Shown in pieces: positions 1 through 19,244 of a stretch of DNA of 19,245 nucleotides; the first letter of the stretch is position 1, and every line of letters begins with the position of its first letter. Origin of the DNA: Gemmatimonadota bacterium. GTDB lineage: Bacteria; Latescibacterota; UBA2968; UBA8231. Under the pieces are notes generated by a model. That model saw only the letters and a program-made list of their open reading frames with translations, searched no databases and was not told where the DNA came from. The translations under genes and the position numbers were made by a program. The stretch spans positions 95,782 through 115,026 of the forward strand of contig JAYOYH010000010.1 in assembly GCA_038153405.1 (NCBI GenBank), given 5' to 3'.

Positions 1-820
1 GGAACGAGTTCGTGCTGCCTTTTGAGCGAAACACCGAGTACCCCGTCAGCCCCGTTAACTGACCGCCGTCCGAATCGAGCGTCGACGCGTTCCAGCTGAC
101 CGTCACCCGGCCAAAATCGGCCTCGTCGGCCACCGCCGAAAGATTCTGCGGTGCGGCCGGGGCCATCTGGTCGGGGCCCTCCGTGCGCACCTGCACCGCA
201 ACCGCCCGCGCGCTCTCATTGCCCGAATCATCGGCCGCCGTCACCGTGTAGTAATACGTCGTCAGCTCATCGAGACCCGTATCCACATACTGGCGCACAT
301 TGGCATCCACCGTCGACACCAGTTGGAACGAGTTCGTGCTGCCTTTTGAGCGAAACACCGAGTACCCCGTCAGCCCCGTCAGGTCGCTGCCGTCGGCATC
401 TCGAGACGGCGCGTTCCAGCTGACCGTCACCCGACCAAAGTCGGCCTCGTCGGCCACCGCCGACACGTTTTGCGGCGCAGCCGGCGCCACTTGGTCTGCC
501 CCCTCCGTGCGCACTTGTACCGAAACCGCCCGCGCGCTCTCATTGCCCGCCCCATCGACCGCCGTCACCGTGTAGTAATACGTCGTCAGTTCGTCGAGGC
601 CAGCATCTACATACTGTCGCGTGTTTGAATCGACCGTCGACACCAGTTGGAACGAGTTCGTGCTGCCCTTTGAGCGAAACACCGAGTACCCGTTCAAACC
701 GGTCAGCTGCCCCCCACCCGCATCGACAGTCGAGGCGTTCCAACTGACCGTTACCCGACCAAAGTCGGCCTCGTCGGCCACCGCCGACACGTTTTGCGGC
801 GCGGCCGGCGCCACTTCGTC
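1..820 (-). repeat. Intragenic tandem repeat, 324-nt (108-aa) unit: 497-820, 173-496, partial 1-172
   Basis: GGAACGAGTTCGTGCTGCC recurs at 1, 325 and 649 (period 324). Each unit encodes one FN3-like domain starting D(E/Q)(V/M)APAAPQN. Confidence 0.95.
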
Positions 821-1846
821 GACGAGAGCCGTAGCACCGACAAAAACGGACAGCTCGCTCACCAAGGTACCGCGGCCAACGGCCTGAACCTTGTAGAAGA
901 AGCTCTCGCCGCCGACCATGCCCGAATCGACGTAGGTCGTCAGCCCCGTGGTAAACTGTGTGCCCTCTTGGCTCGGCAGCATTTCATACCCCTGATCCGA
1001 GCGCAGCGAACGATAGATATTGTAGCCGAGTAGGTCGCTTTCGTTGACGCTATTCCATTGGACTTCAATGCGGCCGATGGCGCCCGTTGCCACGACGTTG
1101 GACGGCGTGGGCAGGCCAAGGGTACTGGCCTGCTGCGGTGCAGTCAGCTGACTCTTATTGTCCTTAGCATCAAAGGCGAGAATCCGATAAGCATAGGTCG
1201 TCAGCGCCTTGAGCCCCTCGTCCGTGTAGTTCTGGACATCTGCCTCTAGCGTATCGATCGGCACGTAGCCCTGATCCCCCTCGGCGCGGAACAACACAAA
1301 ACCTGCCAAACCGGTCAGCGCGCCCCCCCCCACATCGGTGCGCGGCAGCGTCCAGCGCACGATAATGCGTCCGGCCTCGGCGTCGTCGGCCACGACCGAC
1401 AAATTCGCCGGGGGTTCGGGCGGCGTTATATCTTCGATGATAGTCGCGCCAACAAAGTTCGATAATTCGCTGAGTAAACCGGTCGTATCAACGGCTGCCA
1501 CCCGGTAGAAAAACGTCTGTCCTGGCGCGTCGAGCGAGTCGATAAAGCTGACTTTACCCGTGGTAATCTGCAGCGTGCTGTCGCCATCGCCCGACACAAA
1601 GGCGTAGCTCCCGTTGGACTGGGCTGCGCGAAATACGGCGTAGCCGGCCAAGTCGGCCGCGTCCACGGCCTGCCATCCCAGCAGGATGCGTCCGACACCC
1701 GGTTGTATCTGCAGCCCCGCGGGCGTATCCGGTCGCAGGACGAGCACAGCGGCCTGAGGATCGATTGGATTGCTGCGTTCTCGATCACAGCTCAACAGGA
1801 GAAACACAGCGCTCAGCGCCATCAAATGGACATAGATTTTTTTCAT
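2..1846 (-). CDS. Large lipoprotein with tandem fibronectin type III-like domains (3' end beyond window)
   Basis: Hand translation from ATG 1846 gives 615 codons with no stop to the window edge. N-terminus MKKIYVHLMALSAVFLLLS-C20 is a lipobox. Five complete and one partial FN3-like domains follow, with the pattern P..P.N/GL...V.W...L.GY.VFRS...Y.D..L....YYY.V.A.D..GNES. Confidence 0.9.
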   Translation of the reverse strand, partial: MKKIYVHLMALSAVFLLLSCDRERSNPIDPQAAVLVLRPDTPAGLQIQPGVGRILLGWQAVDAADLAGYAVFRAAQSNGSYAFVSGDGDSTLQITTGKVSFIDSLDAPGQTFFYRVAAVDTTGLLSELSNFVGATIIEDITPPEPPANLSVVADDAEAGRIIVRWTLPRTDVGGGALTGLAGFVLFRAEGDQGYVPIDTLEADVQNYTDEGLKALTTYAYRILAFDAKDNKSQLTAPQQASTLGLPTPSNVVATGAIGRIEVQWNSVNESDLLGYNIYRSLRSDQGYEMLPSQEGTQFTTGLTTYVDSGMVGGESFFYKVQAVGRGTLVSELSVFVGATALVDEVAPAAPQNVSAVADEADFGRVTVSWNASTVDAGGGQLTGLNGYSVFRSKGSTNSFQLVSTVDSNTRQYVDAGLDELTTYYYTVTAVDGAGNESARAVSVQVRTEGADQVAPAAPQNVSAVADEADFGRVTVSWNAPSRDADGSDLTGLTGYSVFRSKGSTNSFQLVSTVDANVRQYVDTGLDELTTYYYTVTAADDSGNESARAVAVQVRTEGPDQMAPAAPQNLSAVADEADFGRVTVSWNASTLDSDGGQLTGLTGYSVFRSKGSTNSF

Positions 1847-4652: not shown

Positions 4653-4681
4653 TTGACAGCACATGCGCCTTCTCTTAGTAT
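4653..4681 (+). promoter_or_regulatory. Sigma70-type promoter for the porV-like/era/purD genes
   Basis: TTGACA (4653-4658), 17-nt spacer, TAGTAT (4676-4681). Confidence 0.7.
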
Positions 4682-4716
4682 TCACCTGTTCACAATTCCT
4701 TTTATTTCAATGCCCT

Positions 4717-5649
4717 ATGCACAGAATAGTCACGGCTGTTTTCCTCTTTCTTTCGACGGCGGGCAGTGCTGCTGCCGCGTCTGCATTTGCCGGTGAGTTT
4801 CTCTCGCTGGGCGCCGGCGCACGCGCCATGGCATTGGGCAGCGCCTTTGTCGCCATCGCCGATGACCCGACGGCCACCTATTGGAACCCAGCTGGCCTTA
4901 CGCGGCTTACCGACCGACAGGTGCACCTCATGCACGCCGAGCGCTTCTCCGGCCTGGTAGACCACGACTTTGCGGCCGTTGCCCGCCCCGGTCGCCGCCT
5001 GCACGGCATGGGCATTGCGCTGCTGCGCGTGGGCGTCAGCGACATCCCCTTCACCGAATTGACCGATCCCGGCCGACCGCTTAGCGAGACCAATCGCCCC
5101 TATATCTCCTCGACGGAGACGAGTGCCGACTATGCGCTCTACCTATCTTTTGCCCACCGCCTGCGCGAGTCGATTTCGCTGGGCACCTCGCTCAAGCTGA
5201 TCTATCGCCAGATCGCCTCATTCAGCGCCTATGGCATGGGTGTGGATATCGGCATGAACGTTCAGCTGCGACCCGGTTTAGCACTGGCCGTCAGCCTGCG
5301 CGACGCCACCACGACGCCCATGGTCTGGGATACCGATGCGAGCGATCGCATCCAGCCCTCTCTCGTGCTGGGGGCCACCTACCGTCTAGCGCTGGCCGGG
5401 GGCAGTGCGACCCTGGCGCTGGGCTCGCGCACAGGAGGCAACGCCGACGACATCGGCCAGGGCAATCCGCTGCTGTCCGGCATCGAATACCGCTATCGGG
5501 CGCTGGCGCTGCGCGGCGGCCTGGAAGAAGGCCGCCAGTCCTTTGGCATTGGTCTGCAGCCGCATCAGCGCATCGCCCTCGATCTCGCCTATATGCAACA
5601 CGACCAACTCGAGTCGACTTATCAGCTCTCTGCCAACCTCTCCTTCTGA
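4717..5649 (+). CDS. PorV/PorQ (FadL-like, UPF0164) family outer-membrane beta-barrel
   Basis: Signal peptide followed by FLSLGAGARAMALGSAFVAIADDPTATYWNPAGL, amphipathic strands and a terminal Phe. ATG 4717 is preferred because ATG 4663 lies inside the predicted promoter. Confidence 0.85.
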   Translation: MHRIVTAVFLFLSTAGSAAAASAFAGEFLSLGAGARAMALGSAFVAIADDPTATYWNPAGLTRLTDRQVHLMHAERFSGLVDHDFAAVARPGRRLHGMGIALLRVGVSDIPFTELTDPGRPLSETNRPYISSTETSADYALYLSFAHRLRESISLGTSLKLIYRQIASFSAYGMGVDIGMNVQLRPGLALAVSLRDATTTPMVWDTDASDRIQPSLVLGATYRLALAGGSATLALGSRTGGNADDIGQGNPLLSGIEYRYRALALRGGLEEGRQSFGIGLQPHQRIALDLAYMQHDQLESTYQLSANLSF

Positions 5650-7936: not shown

Positions 7937-8239
7937 TCAGGCCAGCGTATCGACTACCTGACCGCGTCCCTGCTGTTGTTCTATCTCTAAGCGCTGGCTC
8001 TGATTTTCGCTGCGCTGGCGGCTTTGCTGAGAAGCCTGCTGCTGACGCGCCTGCTCGGCGCGCTGAGTCTGCTGCGCTTCTTCTGTGCGCTCTGTGCGCT
8101 GACGCTCTTCCTGGCGGCGGCTTTCGGCCTCTTCAGCGCGGCGCTCCTGCATCGCGCGGCGATTGCTCTGCGCCTCTTGTGCGCCGCCAGAACCGCCGGA
8201 CTGCATAGCCCCGCTGCGCGTCGACGAGACTTCGGACAT
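7937..8239 (-). CDS. Small low-complexity Q/R/E-rich protein (100 aa) with C-terminal GQVVDTLA motif
   Basis: Perfect AAGGAGGT RBS 5 nt before ATG 8239, own predicted promoter, and the ORF fills the purD-folB gap. Confidence 0.8.
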   Translation of the reverse strand: MSEVSSTRSGAMQSGGSGGAQEAQSNRRAMQERRAEEAESRRQEERQRTERTEEAQQTQRAEQARQQQASQQSRQRSENQSQRLEIEQQQGRGQVVDTLA

Positions 8240-9270: not shown

Positions 9271-10129
9271 AACAACGCGAGCCATGCAGCGGCAGGCCGA
9301 CGCCTGGCGACAGTGCGGAGAGCGCATCGTCCTCGTGCCGACAATGGGCTATTTACACCGCGGCCACCTCAGCCTCGTCGAACGCGCACAATCGCTTGGA
9401 CAGCGCTGCGTTGTGAGCGTGTTTGTCAACCCGCTGCAGTTTGGCCCCAAGGAGGACTTTGCCATTTATCCGCGCGATCTCGAGCGCGATTTGGAGTTGT
9501 TGAACAACGGTGGAGTAGATGCCGTCTTCCATCCATCCGTAGACGATTTCTACTCCCCATCCTTTTCCACGTATGTCGAAGTAGAAGGGCTTACGGACGG
9601 CCTGTGCGGCGCGTTCCGCCCGGGTCATTTCCGCGGCGTCACCACGGTTGTCGCCAAGCTGTTTACCACTGTTAAACCGCACGTGGCCGTCTTTGGCCAA
9701 AAGGACTATCAGCAGGTCGCCGTTATCCGACGCATGGTTTCCGACCTCAGTATCGACGTCGATATCGACACGGCGCCCACCGTGCGCGAAGTGGACGGAC
9801 TGGCGATGAGTTCGCGCAATATCCGCCTGAGTGATGAAGAGCGCCGACGGGCCCCCATCCTCTACCAATCGCTGTGCCGAGCGCGCGACCTGCTCGCCAA
9901 CGGTCAGCGCGACACCCACCCCCTCATAGCCGAGATGCGCGCGGCCATTGAGCACCAACTCACGCGCGATATCGACTATATATCCATCGTCGATCCCGAT
10001 TCGCTGGCAGATCTCCAGCGCGTAGAGCAGTCCGCCGTAATCGCCCTGGCCGTGCGCCTGTCCACAGTGCGCCTCATCGACAACGTCCTCTTCACCGCCG
10101 GGCAAAAAAAAGACGAGGACGCCTCGTAG
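9254..10129 (+). CDS. panC: Pantoate--beta-alanine ligase
   Basis: VPTMGYLHRGH, SVFVNPLQF, RPGHFRGV, FGQKDYQQ, REVDGLAMSSRN, RLIDN. Confidence 0.98.
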   Translation: MPALIETTRAMQRQADAWRQCGERIVLVPTMGYLHRGHLSLVERAQSLGQRCVVSVFVNPLQFGPKEDFAIYPRDLERDLELLNNGGVDAVFHPSVDDFYSPSFSTYVEVEGLTDGLCGAFRPGHFRGVTTVVAKLFTTVKPHVAVFGQKDYQQVAVIRRMVSDLSIDVDIDTAPTVREVDGLAMSSRNIRLSDEERRRAPILYQSLCRARDLLANGQRDTHPLIAEMRAAIEHQLTRDIDYISIVDPDSLADLQRVEQSAVIALAVRLSTVRLIDNVLFTAGQKKDEDAS

Positions 10130-10162: not shown

Positions 10163-11788
10163 CTACTTGACCAACGTCAGTCCACGCACGAACACCGCTT
10201 CACCGATATGGGCTATGGCGTAGTACTGCCCGCTGCCCACGGCGCGCCCCATATCGTCGCGTCCATCCCAGTGCTGCCGGTGCGATCCGGCATCCATCGG
10301 ACCGCGTACTAGCCGGCGAACGCGCTGCCCCAGGCTATTGTATATCGATATCTCTACCATCGCGTGGCGCGCCACTTCGACGGGTAGCAGCACCTGCCCA
10401 TTAAACGGATTGGGATATGCTGCCCCCAGCGCAAAATGCACATCGGCTTGCCCCACTTCGCCGACTGCCGTGGGAATGGGCTCTGGCTCGTACGGACGCA
10501 CCGCCAGAGAGAATGATCCCCCCGCCAACGCCGTGCGGCCAACTACAAAGCCGATGCTATCGACACCGGCCCACTGAACGCTACCGGCATTGTTGTCGTC
10601 GAGTTCCACGGCGACCATTTCGCCGGTGCGCCCGCGCAAGCCGTATCCCCATACCGCATAGCGGCCTTCCGCCGCACCGCGAAACTCGACTTCCACGTTG
10701 CCCGGTGTGTGCAGTGAAAAGTTGATCGTGCCCCACTGCTGCCCGACCCCGCCTTCAGCCGGCCCAAACGGCATTTGGTCAATGGCGAAAGAGCGCACGC
10801 GCCGACCGCGCAAAGCGCGGTAGCCATAGTAGGTATCGCCGGAGGCGTAATTGCCCGCAATCCACAGGCGCCACGCACCGACAAAGTTTTCCACCGCACC
10901 GACGTCCTTAAAGGCCTCGTCTATTCCAAAGGTGCCGTTGCGCCCTTCGGCGACGAGGGCGCGGATCAGTTCAGGTCCGTAGCGCTCACGCAGAAACGAA
11001 GCAAATAAGTAGGTGGCCCCATAGTGGGGAATGGCCGCCCCGACCACCGAGGGCCAAGTCGTCAAATTGAGATCGGGCGCGTCGAGAAACTGCGGCACCA
11101 TATTGGGATCGGTTTCGGCAAATCCTACCAGCTCTTCCGCATAGCCCGATAGCCCCTCGTCGACCCAGGCTTCTTCGTCGTCATCGTGTCCCCAGTGAAT
11201 AAGGTGTTGGAACTCGTGCGCCAGCGTGCCGCGCGCCAGCGTCGGATTTGAATTGAGGTGAAACGCGTCGAGAAAGAGTGCATCGCGCCGCAGCTGCGGG
11301 TCGATATGGGTGGCGATGCGCGGGTCGAAAAAGCCGACAATGCGGTTGTCGGGCATATCGACCACAAAAATAAAGATGCGCTTATCGCCGTCGACGTCGG
11401 GCGCTTCGCCAAAGGCCTCTGTCGCCAATTCATAAATGCCGCGCGCCGGATCGGCCGGCGTCGCTTCGTCAAACAGGGCGCCTAGGCGATCGATGGACGG
11501 CTGCACCACGACCACATCCCAGACGCGATCCTCGACGAAGATATAGGCGTTGTCGCCAACGTAGCGGCAGGTCGTCGAGCGCAGGAACGCGTCGCCGAAC
11601 AGCGCCGTAGCCAGCGTAGTGCCCACGGCAATTTCCTCGCTCTGCAGTGCTTTGGCCGCCTTGCCCGCCGTCGGCAGCGGCCGATTGCCCGCCTGCTCGG
11701 CCAGCCAACGAGTGCCGCACTGGTGCGGCAGGGCAGCCGAAGCCAGCGGCGCACCAAGGATCGCCCCTATAAGCAGTAGCGCATACAT
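10163..11788 (-). CDS. Secreted zinc metallopeptidase (HEXXH...E, M30/MA-clan-like) with C-terminal FlgD-Ig/T9SS-like sorting domain
   Basis: Signal peptide from ATG 11788, 4 nt after the upstream stop. TLAHEFQH (HEFQH at 11204-11218), then WVDEGLS. Tail YPNPFN...IYNSLGQRVRRL...WDGRDDMGRAVGSGQYY. Confidence 0.85.
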   Translation of the reverse strand: MYALLLIGAILGAPLASAALPHQCGTRWLAEQAGNRPLPTAGKAAKALQSEEIAVGTTLATALFGDAFLRSTTCRYVGDNAYIFVEDRVWDVVVVQPSIDRLGALFDEATPADPARGIYELATEAFGEAPDVDGDKRIFIFVVDMPDNRIVGFFDPRIATHIDPQLRRDALFLDAFHLNSNPTLARGTLAHEFQHLIHWGHDDDEEAWVDEGLSGYAEELVGFAETDPNMVPQFLDAPDLNLTTWPSVVGAAIPHYGATYLFASFLRERYGPELIRALVAEGRNGTFGIDEAFKDVGAVENFVGAWRLWIAGNYASGDTYYGYRALRGRRVRSFAIDQMPFGPAEGGVGQQWGTINFSLHTPGNVEVEFRGAAEGRYAVWGYGLRGRTGEMVAVELDDNNAGSVQWAGVDSIGFVVGRTALAGGSFSLAVRPYEPEPIPTAVGEVGQADVHFALGAAYPNPFNGQVLLPVEVARHAMVEISIYNSLGQRVRRLVRGPMDAGSHRQHWDGRDDMGRAVGSGQYYAIAHIGEAVFVRGLTLVK

Positions 11789-11792
11789 GAGA

Positions 11793-12410
11793 TTAGAAAC
11801 GGCGCACCAGCGACCAGCGCATACCACCGGGCTGAGGAATAAGCTGCGCGTGTACGGCAGCCGTATGGCCGGGCTCTTTGCCCACGCTGCGCCCAGCGTG
11901 AATAGCAGCAATCAGATGATTGGCGACGATCAGGCCGGTTGCATAGAGCGCCTGGCGCTTGGCCAACTGGCTCTCGTTGCGCATGCCGCGGTAGCGCTCG
12001 CGCGCCGCATCGCCATCCCACTCCCAGTCGAAGTCGGGACCGACCGCGTAGAGCTGCGCGTTGGGCCCATCTTCGCGCCGGGCAAATTGATTGTGCTGGA
12101 CGCGGCTCTGGTAAAAACCCAAATCGTCGAGAAAGCGCCGCCCCTTGCCGCGCGAATCGGCGCCGCCCCGTTCGGCCGCATAGGCGTGAAAGCGGTCGGC
12201 GCGCACCTCGGCAAGGCGGTTCAAGGCCGCATAGCTGAGCCACAGCGCGCCTTCGGCCGCCAGAAAACGCCCTCCTCCACCGCTGGCGTAGTGCTGTCCC
12301 CAGCCCGGCAAGAGTAACGAGCGCCAAAACGCACCGGCCCCCGTCTGCGCCGACGCCGAGGTGACTAGCGCCAATACGGCAGAAAAGGCGATGAATATCT
12401 TGGACGACAT
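11793..12410 (-). CDS. Hypothetical exported membrane protein with SLLxPGxGQ motif (205 aa)
   Basis: Signal peptide MSSKIFIAFSAVLALVTSASA, then SLLLPGWGQHY, two hydrophobic helices and C-terminal RWSLVRRF. Starts 7 nt after the upstream stop. Confidence 0.8.
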   Translation of the reverse strand: MSSKIFIAFSAVLALVTSASAQTGAGAFWRSLLLPGWGQHYASGGGGRFLAAEGALWLSYAALNRLAEVRADRFHAYAAERGGADSRGKGRRFLDDLGFYQSRVQHNQFARREDGPNAQLYAVGPDFDWEWDGDAARERYRGMRNESQLAKRQALYATGLIVANHLIAAIHAGRSVGKEPGHTAAVHAQLIPQPGGMRWSLVRRF

Positions 12411-12417
12411 CGCCGGC

Positions 12418-13305
12418 CTAGGGAAAGGGCTTGTAGGCCATGAGCATGGGCACGCGCGCGCGCTGGCCTCCATGCATGACAACCGCAAAACGCGTGCGTC
12501 GCTCGATGGCCTCGGCCGTGGCCCCCTCGGCGCGCGACCGCGCCACGCGCGCCGCGTCAATGGCGCTGATGACGTGGTTGACCAATAGCAGGCCCGTCAC
12601 CGAACTAGCGCGCTTTAAAAATCGGTTGCTGTCGTCGCGCTGCACTTCGTAGGCCAGTCGCGTCTCCGACAGGAAATTTTCCACCGAGTCCACCTGCGTA
12701 GCCTCTGCGGAACCGCCGGTTTCAGCGTGTACCAAATCGGTCCATCCCGAAACGAATTGGTCGTATTTGCCGATGAGCTCGTAGTACTGCTGCACCTCGG
12801 CATCGGGACAGCGACCAAAGTCGCCGGTATCCAGATAGTCGTCGATATAGGTCGAGCACGGCAGGGCGTGCGTGATGGACGAATTGCGCGAAATGGTCGC
12901 GTCGCGCCAAGCGAGATAGCCCTGCGGGTCCCACTTATCGTCGGCGACCTGGCGAAACTCTTTTTCCGCATCGTTGCCCTGACCGCTCCAATTGACGTAC
13001 AGCCCCAAGCCCACCGCTTCGAGCCCCATAAACAGCGCGCCGCGCATCGTCGCGCCGTTCATTATTTGCCCCAGGCCCGGCACTAGCAGTGAATAGAGAA
13101 AGGCGCGGCGCGGCGTCGTGCCTCCCTTGTCTTCCTGCGGCAAACGGCGCTTGGGGGCGGGTCCATTTTCCTGCGCAACGGCGAGTGGCCCCATTAGGAA
13201 GTGCTGCCCCTCCTCGCTAAACAAACTGGGCAGCTGCTCGGCACCAAGCGGTGCACTGTTTAGTAACGCGCCCAGCGCAAGCACTGCAATCACTCGTATA
13301 CTCAT
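12418..13305 (-). CDS. Hypothetical exported membrane protein with SLLxPGxGQ motif (295 aa)
   Basis: GGGGAGAG RBS before ATG 13305, signal peptide, SLLVPGLGQ, QQYYELIGKYDQFVSGW, NHVISAIDA. Confidence 0.82.
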   Translation of the reverse strand: MSIRVIAVLALGALLNSAPLGAEQLPSLFSEEGQHFLMGPLAVAQENGPAPKRRLPQEDKGGTTPRRAFLYSLLVPGLGQIMNGATMRGALFMGLEAVGLGLYVNWSGQGNDAEKEFRQVADDKWDPQGYLAWRDATISRNSSITHALPCSTYIDDYLDTGDFGRCPDAEVQQYYELIGKYDQFVSGWTDLVHAETGGSAEATQVDSVENFLSETRLAYEVQRDDSNRFLKRASSVTGLLLVNHVISAIDAARVARSRAEGATAEAIERRTRFAVVMHGGQRARVPMLMAYKPFP

Positions 13306-13347
13306 TTGCTCTCTCCCCTGCAAAAACCACGCTCCCCTAGCGGGCGT

Positions 13348-16300
13348 TTATAAATATCCAAACAGCACCGTTAAATAGAACTTCCACGGACTGCGCTCGG
13401 CCACTTCGTCGATGCCATAGGCCAGATCGACCTGCACGCGCGTAGGCACACTATAATAGGAGTTCAGATCAAAGCGCAATTGCCCGCCGACGTCGCGCAG
13501 CGGCGCCTTCCGCCCGTAAAACGAATCGGGCTCGTCCAATGCGCGATCCCATGCTTTGCCAATATCGCCGTAGACCGCGCCGTAGACCTTGTCTACGTAG
13601 ACGTGTAAGAAGCGCGCGCCCCAGTGCGCTATCAGTGGGAAGCGCAACGTGGCGGTGCCCATGGCGGCCTTGCGCCCCTCAATGCTGTAAAAAGTATAGC
13701 CCTTCATAAAGCTCAGCCCGCCCAAATGGTAGTCAAAGAAATCATTGACCGCCTCTTTATCGTCAACCGCATCGCTGGCAATCCAGCCGCCGAAAAAGCG
13801 CAGGCCGAGGCGCCCGTTCCACGGCAGCGCTATATATTCGTTCCATTCGAGCGTAAACTGGTTGTAGAACAGCTTAATAAACTCCTCGTCAATAAACGAT
13901 GCCTGTTCGTTAAACGAGTCGAGAAAGTAGTTGTACATTCTATCGTAGCGCGCGTAAATCTTGCGTCCCACCGGGCTGATCTCGCGGTCGCGGCGGCGCG
14001 CCAGCAGGTCGAGGCGGTAGGTTAGCCCGAGGCCAAAGCCGTTCAGATAGGTATAGCCAAACGGCTTCTGGTTCTCCAACAACAGGCCAATATTGCCATC
14101 GCGACGCGGCACGAAGGCGCGCCATTGGACGCTGGCATCATAGCGGTCATAGGTGGCCGAGGCCGTCAGCTCGCCGTGGCGCCCCAGGCGACCGCGCGCA
14201 CCGATGCTAATCTGATTGAGGCTGAAGTTGACGCCGTCAATAATCGCGTCGCGCGCATCGGTGCTATCGCCGCGCGCCGAGTGGCGCTTCTGGTGAAACG
14301 CTTCCAGAAACAAGGTCGGACGCAGACCGCTATATTCGTATAGGGCAAAGAGATCGCGATCGCCATTGGCCGGGGCTAGCGCCGCCCCAACAAAGACGTT
14401 CTGGCGATAGAGCACATCGCTTGACGACGCGTAGAGACCCGGCTTAAAGCGCCCCTCGTCGATGCTCAGCCGAGGCAAGATAGAGGTCTTGAGGAAATCC
14501 GTTCCGTAGGGTTGCCCGCTTCGTGCAGACACCGTCGAAGGACGGCGCAGATGCACATCGTTGGCCCCGCTAACGCGGCGCTCCAGAGAAACGCTTGTGC
14601 CCTCACTATCAATCCTGCGAATTTCAAACCCATCGGCCGCGTAGGCGGAAAAATACACCTGCCCCTTGGCGTTAACCGTCGGGTTGAACGCCCCACCCCT
14701 GACGTTGGTAATCTGCTGGACGGTTCCCGTTGCCAGCTCAATCGAATAGATATTAAAAATCCCGCTGATATCGGACGAGAAGTATAGGCGCGTGCCGTCA
14801 GGGCTCCAGGCCGGATCGCGGTCTGTGCCCGACGTAGACACGAGCAGTTCCCAGCGATCTTCGGCGCGGAGCTGCCCGTTTTCTTCGCGCACGCGCAGCA
14901 GGGCAATATCGCGCTGGCCATCGCGCGCGATAGACAGCGCAATATGCGCACCATCGGGGGCAAAGCGCGGGCTGTAGAGCTGGGTGCCGTCGGCAATCTC
15001 CGTCAGGTAGTGCACATCGCTGCCGTCGGCGCGCATCGTCCCTAAGTTGTTGTTAGTACCCTCGTTGTGCACAAAGGCAATCCACTGGCCGTCGGGCGAG
15101 TGGGCCGGATACAATCCACGCAAACCGCGACTCAGGCGCCCCTCGCGCGCCGGTTCGGCGCCATAGCCGCGCACCAACGTCGGCACTAGCCACGCCGCGC
15201 CGTGGACCAAACCCGGCTCCTCAATGGAGAAGTCGTATGCGTAGATGTCGGACTGGCGCGAGCCGTAGCGGTCGGCACGGTCTATGCGCGCAAAGACCAG
15301 CTTGTCCTCCGTCGGCGAAAAGCTCAGCGCCGAGGCGGCCACCGCCGGCGCAATGACTTCGTCTTCGCCGCTTTCCAGATCGCGCACGACCAGCAAGTGC
15401 GGACCGTAGTGGCGCTTTTTTGTCGATAGATAGGCCAGGCGCTGACCGTCGGATGAGAGGCGCGGACGCATATTGGAAAAGCCCTCGTCGACGACGACCT
15501 CCCCCTCGCGCAGCGGCCCCAAGCTGGCCACCTGCGCCTCGTAGCGCACGCGCATATCGGCAATCCAATCGGCGTGCAGCTGATCGACGGTCCGACCGAG
15601 CTTTTCGGCAAAGAGGCCGTCTACATTGAGATTGTGCCAGCGCGCAGCACCCCGATACAACTCAGCCAGCATTTCGTCGCCGTATTCGCGCGCGATATAG
15701 CGCGTCAGACCAAAGCCGTGATCGTAGACGTACTCGTTGCCAAAGCCGCATTTGCCAAAGACGCCCATCTCGTCAAACGAGAGTGGGGCCCCCTCCAGCA
15801 CCTGCATGCGCAGCACCATATCGCGGTGCGCATCCCAGCGATCGCGCCGTGCCCCTTCGGCCATATACTGAGCGGCGCCTTCGGCAAACCACATGGGCAC
15901 CACCGTGCTCATTACCGGATAAGAGGCAATCGCTTCGGGATAGCCGACCAGAATATCGGGGCGGTTTTTCTCGCGCTGGTAGCCAAAGTACTGCAGGTAG
16001 AGGGCCGGCACGCGCTGCACCGTCTTGCGCGAAACGCCCAGCGAAATAATGTGGGTAAACTCGTGGGTGATTACGTTGCGCAGCCAGTCGCTGGTTCCGC
16101 GCAGCTCGTAGTCGTGGTCGAGCGAAGTCGTCCAGATCTCTATGGTATCGTGATAAAAAAAAGCGGCGCCGTTGGCGTAGTCATCAAAGTCTTTCAGGAC
16201 GATGCGCACCTTTTCGCTCGGCTCATAATCGTAGAGCCGCGTGATCGGCCCGTACGCTTCTTCGGCGATCTGCCCCGCACGGCTGGCAGCCACTTCCAAG

Positions 16301-16425
16301 CCCTGATGGTAGAGCACGCGAAAGTGATCTGTTTCAAAAACCTGCCACTGCAATTCGGGGTGGTTCTGCGCATGGGCGCCGCGCAACCACAGAAGGGAAA
16401 ACAGCAGGACGCCCCATGCCCTCAC
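13348..16425 (-). CDS. Peptidase MA-like domain + PD40/TolB-like beta-propeller + Omp85/BamA-like C-terminal barrel (about 1025 aa)
   Basis: GTG start overlaps the upstream TGA (GTGA). Signal peptide ends AHA. HEFTH at 16051-16065 and WFAEGAA. Repeated P.(W/F)SPDG motifs. C-terminal aromatic-rich amphipathic strands with LGG..FMKGY and YGDIGKAW, resembling the Omp85 VRGY and FxDxG motifs. Confidence 0.8.
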   Translation of the reverse strand: MRAWGVLLFSLLWLRGAHAQNHPELQWQVFETDHFRVLYHQGLEVAASRAGQIAEEAYGPITRLYDYEPSEKVRIVLKDFDDYANGAAFFYHDTIEIWTTSLDHDYELRGTSDWLRNVITHEFTHIISLGVSRKTVQRVPALYLQYFGYQREKNRPDILVGYPEAIASYPVMSTVVPMWFAEGAAQYMAEGARRDRWDAHRDMVLRMQVLEGAPLSFDEMGVFGKCGFGNEYVYDHGFGLTRYIAREYGDEMLAELYRGAARWHNLNVDGLFAEKLGRTVDQLHADWIADMRVRYEAQVASLGPLREGEVVVDEGFSNMRPRLSSDGQRLAYLSTKKRHYGPHLLVVRDLESGEDEVIAPAVAASALSFSPTEDKLVFARIDRADRYGSRQSDIYAYDFSIEEPGLVHGAAWLVPTLVRGYGAEPAREGRLSRGLRGLYPAHSPDGQWIAFVHNEGTNNNLGTMRADGSDVHYLTEIADGTQLYSPRFAPDGAHIALSIARDGQRDIALLRVREENGQLRAEDRWELLVSTSGTDRDPAWSPDGTRLYFSSDISGIFNIYSIELATGTVQQITNVRGGAFNPTVNAKGQVYFSAYAADGFEIRRIDSEGTSVSLERRVSGANDVHLRRPSTVSARSGQPYGTDFLKTSILPRLSIDEGRFKPGLYASSSDVLYRQNVFVGAALAPANGDRDLFALYEYSGLRPTLFLEAFHQKRHSARGDSTDARDAIIDGVNFSLNQISIGARGRLGRHGELTASATYDRYDASVQWRAFVPRRDGNIGLLLENQKPFGYTYLNGFGLGLTYRLDLLARRRDREISPVGRKIYARYDRMYNYFLDSFNEQASFIDEEFIKLFYNQFTLEWNEYIALPWNGRLGLRFFGGWIASDAVDDKEAVNDFFDYHLGGLSFMKGYTFYSIEGRKAAMGTATLRFPLIAHWGARFLHVYVDKVYGAVYGDIGKAWDRALDEPDSFYGRKAPLRDVGGQLRFDLNSYYSVPTRVQVDLAYGIDEVAERSPWKFYLTVLFGYL

Positions 16426-19244
16426 TGGCTCACCGCCATTTTTACGAGCGCACTGGCACTGCGCGAGGCGGTTTTTGCGCGCAGCTTCAGCAGGTACACC
16501 CCGCTGGCATACGCATCCACATCCCAAGCCGTATCATTTTCTCCGAGGTGGCCGGCCAGCGCCATGCGCTCGACGAGCGCACCCAGCGCATCGTAGACTT
16601 CCACCTCAACCGAAGCGTCTTCTCGCAGGAAAAAGCGCAGATGGGCGCGCGCGCCGTCGGCCACGGGGTTGGGATAGCAGTAGACGCCTTCCAAAATACG
16701 GGCTGCGCTATCAGGCCCCTGTACGAGGCCGTCCGAGCGGACAAAGCGCATACCGTCGGCCCGTCCGTCGGCCTGCCCCCAATCGGCCGCCGTGCCCACG
16801 TACTGCGGATCGACCGCGCGCAGATCCCAGACGTAGAGCGCGTCCTCTGCAAGAGCTGCAATATCGAGCAAACCGTCCCCATCGAAATCGGCTACCACCG
16901 GCGCATAGACCGGAGGTACTGCCATGAGCAAGGGAAACTCCGGCACCATATCCCCCGTATGGTCCATCGCATAGATGCCGTGCGCACCGGCCAAGACGAT
17001 CTCTCCATCGCCGCGCCCATCGAGATCGGCTATCACCGGCTCGTAGAGCAAGCGCCCAGCCTGCACATAGCGCGGCAGCACCGCGGGAAAATGGGCCTTC
17101 TGCACGCCGTTGGCATCCAGCACGTGCACCCCGTTCACTGCTGCAAAAACGCCTTCCAACAAACCGTCGCCGTCGACGTCGCCCAGCGCCGGTGCGGCCA
17201 CCAGCGAGTCGTTCAGCACCACGACCTGTTCACCCAACAGAATGTGGCCGCCATTCCCTGCCACGAACGTATGCACTTCGTCGCCCTGCTCGGCCCACAG
17301 GCCGGGCAGGGGCTGCTGCTGGCCATCGCCCAGCGCGTTGGCCAGCACCCCGCTGAATCCCACTTCGTTGCCGTAGAGCGATTGAAAGTTGCCGTCTTCG
17401 CTCTCGATTATGGCGCGCAGCACACCGTCGCGCGCATCGATCTCCTCGACGTGGCCAGCTACGATCAGGGCGAGCGTCGGCTCGATAGCGCTACCGGTGC
17501 GGCGAAAGCGCCCAAAGAGCGCATCGCGCACATCTCCCGACAGCGCGTGCTGCCACAAGGGGTTCTCGTCACCTACCTGCCAGGCCTCGACCGCACCGTC
17601 TCGCCGCACAAAGAGTTCGGCGCGGCCATCGCCATCGATATCGCCGGCCGCGAGAAATTGGCCTCCACCAATGCGCCACGGCGAGAGGCCGCCGTCCCAT
17701 TCGGCATAGCGCAAACCGGACGCGTCTTCAACCAGCAATTCGACGTGGCCATCGCCGTCGATATCGGCCGCCTGCAAACGCCGGCCGCCCTCTACGGCCT
17801 GCGGCCAGCCCGCCGCCTGGCGCGCAAAGCGAATAGCCACTTGAACGACGTCGTTGCTCTCCGCCAGCACTTCAATCTCTAAGCCAGTGGCCCACCCGTC
17901 GTTGCTGCGCGAGTTGGGCTGGGTTTCCGCGCCGAACATGCGCGGACCATCGGCGCGAAACGGATCGTCCCGCGAACCCTCAATCTGCCGCAGGCGCTCA
18001 AATAGCGGATAGCCGATATCGCGGTAGCCGTCAGCCTCTTCGAGGGCGATGCCCGGCTGCACGGGATCGTTGTTCATCGCGCCGGCCGGCCTCTCGCTTA
18101 TGACCCGCTCGTCGACGTGCCAAATGAGCAGGCCGGAGCCCGGCACGAACGCATCGTATTCATCCACACCCAACCACACGCCCTCATTTGCTCCTGAAAA
18201 ATCGATTTCGTCTTCGCCAATCCAGGCGATTTCATCGGGATCGGCCCCGATGACCTGCATGCCCTGGGGGGCGCCCTGGCGAGCGCGGCGCTGGCGATAC
18301 TCCAGCAGAAAATACTCCTCATCGTCGATGGGAATGCGCACGGCCTTAGACCATTCGCCCGCGCGATCGGTAGCTAGGATCGATACCACCGTATCGCGCA
18401 GCACCTCAAGCGGCTCGATCCACCCCAGGCGCGCTTTGCTCCAGGCCATGGGATGGGGGGCGACAAAACCTACGACGGGATCCAAGCTATCGCGGCGCAC
18501 AAAGCCCAGCGCGTTGGCCCCCACGTCCATCAGACTCCAACCGCCCAACGCAGGCAGTCCATCGGCGAAATTCGACAGGCCCGGCAGACCGAGTTGGTGG
18601 CCAAAAAACTTAGCCATCAAACCGTTTAACCCACCGCGTCCACTGTCGCTAGGCGACTCGGGCAGAATCCACGCTCGTCTAATGTCAACGCCGCCAATGC
18701 GCAGGGGCCCGCCGGCGTACTGGGCGAAGTCGCTCTCCTCCAAAAACACCGAGCGGATATCGTTTAGCTGTCCGGTCTCGTGTCCGACCCCGGCGTGCAG
18801 TATGAGAAAGCTGTTAAAATCGCTCAGGTTGGGGCCGTCGGGATCGGCAGCGGCTCGTTCCAGTGCATCGCGCAGCAGTTCGATCCAGCGCTGACCTATT
18901 TCTTCGCTGCTGCGCCCGTTGCCATAGTGCAGCATGCGCTGAGGCAGCGTATACGCCGCGCTATTGGCGCGCGGATACACCGCATAGTCAATAGCAACGC
19001 GGCCCTCCGACACCACGTCGTAGTAGCGGCGCAGCGCCTCCAAATGATGCTCGAAATACGTGCGGTCGTGCGGGGGCAAATCGTAGGGGAGCGCGTAACC
19101 GGAGCGCGCCTCGTCGGCGCTGCGCAAGTCAAATTGCCCCCGACCCGTCGTGGTGAATTCGTCCGTATCTTCGTAGGGAAAATCGACTCTCAGAGCGAGG
19201 ATCCGCCACTCCTGTGCACTGACTGCAGCAGTGCACAAAAGCAG
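16422..19244 (-). CDS. M6 (immune inhibitor A)-like metalloprotease homologue with degenerate zinc motif, FG-GAP-like repeats and C-terminal T9SS-like sorting domain (5' end beyond window)
   Basis: Frame stays open to the window edge within a signal peptide (LLLCTAAVSA). M6-like motifs ILALRVDF, ILHAGVG, GHQLGLP, WSLMDVG, AWSKARLGW, EYFLLEYR, GLLIWHVDE. Five DxDGxG repeats. Tail YCYPNPV...VYDALG...WDVDAYASGVYLLKL. Confidence 0.85.
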   Translation of the reverse strand: MLLCTAAVSAQEWRILALRVDFPYEDTDEFTTTGRGQFDLRSADEARSGYALPYDLPPHDRTYFEHHLEALRRYYDVVSEGRVAIDYAVYPRANSAAYTLPQRMLHYGNGRSSEEIGQRWIELLRDALERAAADPDGPNLSDFNSFLILHAGVGHETGQLNDIRSVFLEESDFAQYAGGPLRIGGVDIRRAWILPESPSDSGRGGLNGLMAKFFGHQLGLPGLSNFADGLPALGGWSLMDVGANALGFVRRDSLDPVVGFVAPHPMAWSKARLGWIEPLEVLRDTVVSILATDRAGEWSKAVRIPIDDEEYFLLEYRQRRARQGAPQGMQVIGADPDEIAWIGEDEIDFSGANEGVWLGVDEYDAFVPGSGLLIWHVDERVISERPAGAMNNDPVQPGIALEEADGYRDIGYPLFERLRQIEGSRDDPFRADGPRMFGAETQPNSRSNDGWATGLEIEVLAESNDVVQVAIRFARQAAGWPQAVEGGRRLQAADIDGDGHVELLVEDASGLRYAEWDGGLSPWRIGGGQFLAAGDIDGDGRAELFVRRDGAVEAWQVGDENPLWQHALSGDVRDALFGRFRRTGSAIEPTLALIVAGHVEEIDARDGVLRAIIESEDGNFQSLYGNEVGFSGVLANALGDGQQQPLPGLWAEQGDEVHTFVAGNGGHILLGEQVVVLNDSLVAAPALGDVDGDGLLEGVFAAVNGVHVLDANGVQKAHFPAVLPRYVQAGRLLYEPVIADLDGRGDGEIVLAGAHGIYAMDHTGDMVPEFPLLMAVPPVYAPVVADFDGDGLLDIAALAEDALYVWDLRAVDPQYVGTAADWGQADGRADGMRFVRSDGLVQGPDSAARILEGVYCYPNPVADGARAHLRFFLREDASVEVEVYDALGALVERMALAGHLGENDTAWDVDAYASGVYLLKLRAKTASRSASALVKMAVSQ

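Follow-up and report, generated by a model that had tools for sequence, protein, structure and literature searches.

The five genes studied here, g1 to g5, are the tail of an operon headed by porU and porV, and the products of four of them, g1 to g4, may make up an accessory module in the outer membrane that serves a T9SS with no recognisable motor, a reading to which we give even chances. The grounds for an accessory role in the T9SS are that the operon with porU-porV is kept across many phyla that are pore-positive and show no recognisable motor. We are fairly confident of the less specific statement that porV, g1 and the g3/g4 pair, with g2 where present, belong to a T9SS without the known motor. 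What is known of the T9SS mechanism comes from Bacteroidia, where a proton-driven motor draws cargo off the SprA pore. Many phyla have the pore and the shuttle and no recognisable motor, and in them the same few unstudied genes stand behind porV. The genome at hand holds about a hundred CTD cargo frames, yet no motor is recognisable in it, and the operon genes are concrete candidates for what a motor-less T9SS uses instead. The question is testable because relatives are found, among the matches listed, in Ignavibacteria and Caldithrix, groups with cultured members.

The first-pass annotation had presented the five genes as a five-gene operon. The gene row is real: all five genes are on the minus strand of the window, the whole stretch of 19,245 nucleotides that was analysed, and the gaps of -4, 42, 7 and 4 nt were reproduced (Table 1). 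The operon, however, has seven genes. Contig C10 stops where the window stops, and the start codon of g1 therefore falls outside both. It is supplied by contig C91, which shares a unique 55-nt overlap with the window end and, directly upstream of g1, encodes a PorV-family protein of 349 aa and a PorU of 1243 aa. PorU scores 665 bits against NF033707 (cut-off 420) and PorV 257 bits against NF033709 (cut-off 90), the latter reaching 175 bits with the PorV equivalog NF033710, below the cut-off of 250. The identical seven-gene row is present on a single contig in two genomes of the same genus. Instead of standing free, then, the genes end a porU-porV operon, with SprA and a PorZ-like protein encoded elsewhere in the genome. 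The closest named relatives among the matches listed are Latescibacterota MAGs.

Table 1. Positions of the operon genes, their motifs and related genes (window positions, unless a locus is given)
Feature	Position	Strand	Description
g1	16422->19245	-	M6-like pseudo-protease with FG-GAP beta-propeller and type A CTD; truncated 5' by the contig end
g1 degenerate zinc motif	18597-18611	-	KFFGH in the HEXXH position
g2	13348-16425	-	gluzincin peptidase, TolB-like propeller, Omp85-type barrel, no POTRA
g2 zinc motif	16051-16065	-	HEFTH
g2 hydrophobic beta-hairpin	15898..16020	-	within the HEXXH-WxxEG spacer; conserved, predicted at the barrel strand 1 position
g2 MKGY	13696-13707	-	G and Y invariant
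g3	12418-13305	-	DUF5683-like membrane protein
g4	11793-12410	-	paralogue of g3
g5	10163-11788	-	M30-like gluzincin with CTD; lineage-restricted operon member
g5 zinc motif	11204-11218	-	HEFQH
Terminator-like hairpin and T-run	10104..10127	-	overlaps the end of a convergent panC-like gene
porU (contig C91)	L071:1334-5065		upstream PorU
Peptidase-propeller-barrel paralogues, own genome	L072:9343-12732, L073:7505-10309, L074:7804-11088		

Signal peptides, claimed earlier for all five proteins, were assigned by eye, that of g1 from a signal-like N-terminus on C91, beyond the window. The single terminator said to close the operon exists as a hairpin (10127-10113) followed by T8, but it is no better than chance: the window has 21 terminator-like sites where 18.1 would be expected, and the fold z is -0.60. 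RNA evidence comes from three metatranscriptomes of one study, in small shares (0.05-0.11); the contigs, short and near-identical, map in all five genes and cannot establish a transcript. No match to the locus was found among viral contigs.

Gene order was surveyed in 129 distinct loci, which remained after removal of nine duplicates and two g1-less loci from 40 loci of the phylum picked via g2, the best 80 of at least 585 GTDB loci picked by g1 alignment, and a Bacteroidota sample (20 of 53 carriers). The order turned out to be conserved across FCB genomes, as the first-pass annotation had anticipated: porV is directly upstream of g1 in 115 of the 117 loci with upstream DNA, the best 80 of at least 585 included. 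These loci span Latescibacterota, KSB1, Calditrichota, Zixibacteria, Fermentibacterota and non-Bacteroidia Bacteroidota. porU and porV occur together in 68 of 100 loci of this set (again with the best 80 of at least 585). By group (Latescibacterota, other FCB from the best 80 of at least 585, and the Bacteroidota sample, labels that are partly at odds with the tree), porV is upstream in 46/46, 49/51 and 20/20 loci; porU-porV is found in 28/44, 24/37 and 16/19; g2 comes next in 50/50 (in 40 Latescibacterota loci by construction, because these were picked through g2), 26/44 and 16/20; g3/g4 follow in 45/46 (in the sole miss the pair sits behind an insert), 37/41 and 16/20; and g5 follows in 37/43, 5/33 and 0/16. 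For the 79 non-Latescibacterota loci, all obtained via g1 and including the best 80 of at least 585, the counts are 69/71 for porV, 42/64 for g2 next and 53/61 for g3/g4. The gene order is far beyond chance, and the porV-g1 adjacency is held at about 25-35% protein identity across phyla. g2 is dispensable in several phyla; g5 is lineage-restricted and not core to the operon.

Two peculiarities of the surveyed loci can be added. In six Zixibacteria-like loci (L107, L101, L106, L122, L139 and L152) the PorV upstream of g1 is 770-940 aa long where complete, which suggests a fused extra domain. One genome, G043, has two near-identical operon copies on different contigs (L067, L068), through either duplication or bin contamination.

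The genes may be linked and nonetheless independent, sharing co-regulation only: g1 and g5 would be ordinary CTD cargo, g2 would serve in outer-membrane quality control or assembly at large, and g3/g4 would be envelope proteins of general function. g2 is indeed not found in 7 genomes and is unlinked from g1 in 7 others, which weakens the case for strict co-function of the two; three peptidase-propeller-barrel paralogues stand in unrelated settings, and g5 is variable. Independent genes, however, do not readily account for a porV-g1 adjacency in 115/117 loci across phyla (best 80 of at least 585 included), for a g1 motif state that tracks the presence of g2, or for the occurrence of the g1 family in 0/29 genomes with the canonical motor. 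We regard independence as unlikely.

The pore of the T9SS is readily recognised. SprA (TIGR04189) scores over cut-off in the genome itself and in 38/38 carriers, which bears out the co-occurrence with sprA suggested earlier; with porU-porV leading the operon and CTDs on g1 and g5, the proposed link to CTD export is also upheld. About 104 frames of the genome end in a CTD-like domain. A divergent PorZ-like gene (contig C9, 738 aa) scores 30.7 bits against PF21544 (cut-off 27) and has an E of 1.9e-37 with a Bacteroidota PorZ profile. Co-occurrence with porKLMN, on the other hand, did not hold. GldN was over cut-off in 0/43 and GldM in 0/42 carriers, against 8/8 controls for each, in an HMM search that a divergent motor could escape. 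In the phylum of genome G192 the GldN search was run without a positive control. The genome at hand, which is 93% complete, was searched with four profiles built from 19 Bacteroidota motor operons and labelled in this analysis; it gave no GldN, no GldL, GldM at E 0.16 only, and with the GldK profile only shorter proteins of 313-381 aa without the profile's middle. The sprA neighbourhoods of 20 genomes held no conserved T9SS-like partner, and the commonest neighbours are what we take to be LptF/G- and ComEA-like genes. Among 121 evenly sampled Bacteroidota genomes, GldN was present in 29, the M6 family (scored on 5 candidates per genome) in 53, both in 0 and neither in 39. The GldN-positive genomes are probably one class; this mutual exclusion is confounded by kinship and may represent a single replacement.

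The missing motor matters because in F. johnsoniae, according to passages of PMC10994853, the motor is required to release the carrier-cargo complex from SprA. The module might replace this step, the PorV-cargo complex being extracted or released from SprA by proteolysis or some other energy coupling. Such a role would fit the mutual exclusion of the module and GldN/GldM among the genomes searched. That exclusivity may nevertheless reflect one event, nothing in the make-up of the five proteins suggests an energy transducer, and in Zixibacteria and Fermentibacterota g2 is missing as well as GldN/GldM. Replacement of the motor step therefore seems to us decidedly unlikely.

The upstream PorU is itself unusual. 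It keeps its His and, unlike P. gingivalis PorU, has Ser at the column of the catalytic C690; passages of PMC5562754 call C690A a catalytic mutant of the P. gingivalis protein, and the available text of PMC8545088 has no passage on the catalytic residue. Ser occupies the column in 23/28 Latescibacterota rows, all of one clade, and Cys in 37/37 others. Canonical PorU was found in 0/56 genomes of three related families, in which a longer C25 protein retains both His and Cys. A PorU2-like C25 protein of 1867 aa with His and Cys intact is also encoded at C48:6415-8913 (L075). Four PorU-less genomes were checked, and their sole PorU-type matches are its relatives of about 1900-2000 aa, which makes the C48 protein a candidate CTD peptidase.

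Three metallopeptidase-type domains, one of them dead, and YPNP-type sorting domains on the first and last proteins had been noticed earlier, and both observations stand: g1 has KFFGH where g2 and g5 have intact HEFTH and HEFQH, and YPNP occurs near the C-termini of g1 and g5. The best match of g1, across its N- and C-terminal parts, is NF052323 ('T9SS-dependent M6-like inactivated metalloprotease'), at 300.5 bits and below the cut-off of 600. Members of NF052323 over cut-off show the same porV-g1-g2-g3 order, and g1 is by gene order their syntenic orthologue. The family is known as a model name, and no paper on it was found in the open-access literature. FG-GAP and Por_Secre_tail are over cut-off in g1, its type A CTD scores 29 bits with TIGR04183 (cut-off 23), and its profile matches InhA (4yu5) with an E of 2e-13. 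HEXXH is intact in 0/49 Latescibacterota loci; the catalytic Glu is retained in 36/137 distant relatives, about a quarter. The presence of a PorZ-like gene in 29/42 carriers, including the genome at hand, rules out g1 as a PorZ substitute. NF052322 and NF052326 are unrelated. An apparent g1-g2 fusion in G167 (1946 aa) is likely a frameshift because the g1 CTD is in a different frame.

The state of the M6 motif follows that of g2. HEXXH of g1 is intact in 19/128 loci (best 80 of at least 585 included), all outside Latescibacterota and the Bacteroidota sample. All 15 intact-M6 loci with downstream DNA are without an adjacent g2, and 7 of 8 intact-M6 genomes are without a full-length g2 orthologue, the exception, G178, having a divergent full-length g2-like gene (E 1e-73) together with its active M6. 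Conversely, the dead-M6 genomes without an adjacent g2 carry one elsewhere in 7 cases out of 7. In an M6 tree of 93 rows, in which the motif columns were left out, 32 Latescibacterota rows thinned and short rows dropped, dead and active forms are separated by one change (branch support 38). This is compatible with proteolysis having passed from g1 to g2, as one event and not as independent replication.

g2 combines three parts. Its zinc site consists of HEFTH and WFAEG, with H102, E103, H106 and E163 invariant in 118 sequences. The propeller scores 69.9 bits with PD40, and the AlphaFold model (pLDDT 88.5, pTM 0.88) superposes on TolB with a VIA Z of 25.6. The barrel has no Pfam or NCBIfam Omp85 match in g2 itself, PF01103 being present on some homologues, and phmmer found nothing for it in the PDB; Foldseek with g2 returned propellers only. 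The model, however, contains 16 long strands at residues 629-1003 and aligns with BamA (8xnb; VIA Z 22.1, rmsd 4.3, 317 residues aligned) and TamA (VIA Z 20.1). The loop-6 motif of Omp85 proteins is (V/I)RG(Y/F); MKGY of g2, with invariant G and Y, aligns with LRG of a paralogue. BamA and TamA are POTRA-bearing insertases, whereas in the g2 model the N-terminal part is occupied by peptidase and propeller and no POTRA domain was found. The spacer between HEXXH and WxxEG is 52-54 aa in 102/102 orthologue rows against 26 aa in 7/7 paralogue rows. As the BamA and TamA alignments start at model residues 117-121, the hairpin in this spacer would lie, in the model, at the strand 1 position of those barrels. 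Co-evolution analysis of hairpin and barrel, with an effective depth of about 105, gave mostly noise, and complex prediction with the g2 peptidase and g1 M6 domains scored 0.02 against a mark of 0.32, which is not evidence either way. A g2 match at E <= 1e-20 occurs in 165/168 genomes of the phylum, a count that includes paralogue-only matches. Elsewhere in the genome at hand, in unrelated settings, are three more peptidase-propeller-barrel paralogues (Table 1). The one on C23 (L072) has a spacer of intermediate length after HEXXH, and that on C14 (L074) has two HEXXH-like stretches.

The Omp85-type barrel invites two further explanations. g2 could be an insertase dedicated to g3/g4 or to barrels of the PorV family, its peptidase serving in proof-reading: g3 and g4 directly follow g2 and end in beta-signal-like hairpins. 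Both, however, persist where g2 is absent, in at least 15 loci and 7 genomes, POTRA is lacking, and the hairpin of g2 itself fills the strand-1 seam position in the model, so we allow a dedicated insertase only a slim chance. Alternatively, g2 could be a translocator of the two-partner type exporting g1 and g5 independently of SprA, as an Omp85 barrel adjoining secreted proteins might suggest. With CTDs on both putative substrates, SprA in 38/38 carriers and g1 present without g2 in whole phyla, we find this highly improbable.

g3 and g4, described earlier as paralogous membrane proteins, were confirmed as paralogues (HHalign probability 99.9, E 2.6e-33). Against DUF5683 (PF18935) g3 scores 26.2 bits, just under the cut-off of 26.7, and g4 gives no match; among orthologues 61/78 of g3 and 48/66 of g4 match the domain at E <= 0.01. 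The likeness lies in an N-terminal helical segment common to g3/g4 orthologues, which differ from DUF5683 in an extra conserved cap domain with no solved fold. The g3 model (pLDDT 87.6) shows a long helical hairpin, the cap and a C-terminal beta-hairpin, and has no PDB match beyond generic helical hairpins (best Z 7.0). F, W or Y is among the last three residues in 63/78 g3 and 61/66 g4 rows, and the g3 cap has no cysteines or one pair in 76/78 rows. These terminal aromatics and paired cap cysteines suggest that g3 and g4 are outer-membrane proteins with an extracytoplasmic cap. One DUF5683 protein appears in vesicle proteomes of P. gingivalis, its location given as 'unknown' (parts of PMC13744359); the domain is mentioned in the open-access literature, where no dedicated study was found.

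g5 has, beside HEFQH, a DEG motif, and HEXXH is kept in 29/29 orthologues listed. Its CTD scores 37.8 bits with FlgD_ig (cut-off 27) and only 18.9 with TIGR04183; it matches lugdulysin (7bb8) at E 4.9e-7 and has no PF10460 match, an atlas neighbour having PF10460 on 13% of its members. A second peptidase-propeller-barrel gene replaces g5 in 6/43 Latescibacterota loci; such a peptidase-propeller-Omp85 gene is seen in the g5 slot of several Latescibacterota families (L053, L056-L060 and L062). g5 is in the operon of families with a serine or missing PorU. The idea that it replaces a dead PorU was considered and found weak: the serine forms are one clade, g5 homologues elsewhere occur in cysteine-PorU families, Fermentibacterota have both, and the second C25 protein retains its dyad.

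How does the operon compare with known systems? The PorU-PorV-PorZ-PorQ attachment complex of P. gingivalis, as described in parts of PMC5562754 (PorU structure 6za2), shares the porU-porV pair, which here heads an operon, as well as CTD-bearing surface proteins, PorV-family barrels, a PorZ-like protein and SprA; the present system differs in four extra conserved partners and in that no GldKLMN was found. The WD40-Omp85 subfamily (Heinz and Lithgow, 2014; PMC4104836) likewise fuses a TolB-like propeller to an Omp85 barrel, to which g2 adds a gluzincin domain and an orthologue-specific hairpin. In the portions of its main text at hand, the words 'peptidase' and 'operon' are absent and gene context is not given; what it calls the 'Metallo' class is another domain, PF00149. 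The Bacteroidota BAM complex BamA-D-G-H-M-P, in the sections of PMC12611786 available, is similar in pairing an Omp85 barrel with FCB-specific partners, whereas T9SS components are not in it and g2 has no POTRA. The available parts of PMC11285876, PMC5837995, PMC11205867, PMC12635249, PMC12611786 and PMC5445135 do not describe the gene row, and the earlier statement that no characterised system has this make-up agrees with the open-access literature, in which none was found. As one module, g1 to g4 are deeply conserved and apparently unpublished.

The accessory-module reading, which we prefer, would work as follows. g1 would be exported through SprA via its own CTD and stay at the surface, held by the PorV-family barrel, as a non-catalytic scaffold. 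g2 would be an outer-membrane protein whose zinc peptidase and propeller face the periplasm, taking over the proteolysis formerly provided by an ancestral M6 protein, and would most plausibly clear or mature CTD cargo and shuttle intermediates. g3 and g4 may be structural partners in the outer membrane, anchored by their helices and the C-terminal beta-signal-like hairpin, with a surface cap. g5 would be a CTD cargo like any other, drawn into the operon in certain lineages. It should be noted that both anticorrelations (GldN with M6, and M6 state with g2) are phylogenetically confounded, and that a surface protease is not simply replaced by a peptidase located in the periplasm.

A bolder extension can be drawn from the same comparisons. 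The T9SS may exist in two forms, the GldKLMN-driven form of Bacteroidia being derived and an older, motor-less form serving most other FCB phyla; in the latter the PorV-linked module, made of an M6 or pseudo-M6 protein, a g2 barrel with a seam-closing hairpin and DUF5683-like proteins, would free cargo from SprA, and the proteolytic role would have moved once from a surface M6 enzyme to a barrel-fused peptidase. We think this extension unlikely.

The rest of the window offers a few minor observations. A second PorV/PorQ-family barrel (4663-5649, plus strand) scores 94.6 bits with NF033709 and 164.7 with NF052325 (PorV2), under the cut-off of the latter; it sits in a housekeeping row of what are presumably era-, purD-, folB-, folK- and panC-like genes and stays near the operon in the family. 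A low-complexity ORF of 100 aa, rich in Gln, Arg and Glu (7937-8239, minus), is kept in three same-genus loci. A protein of 152 aa (1916-2374, minus) is built on the plan of g3/g4: its N-terminus resembles a signal peptide, it has two hydrophobic helices, and the last residue of its C-terminal beta-hairpin is F. It has no Pfam or NCBIfam match, however, and no BLAST link. At the other end of the window (2-1846, minus), a lipoprotein-like frame with tandem, near-identical fibronectin type III repeats runs off the sequence.
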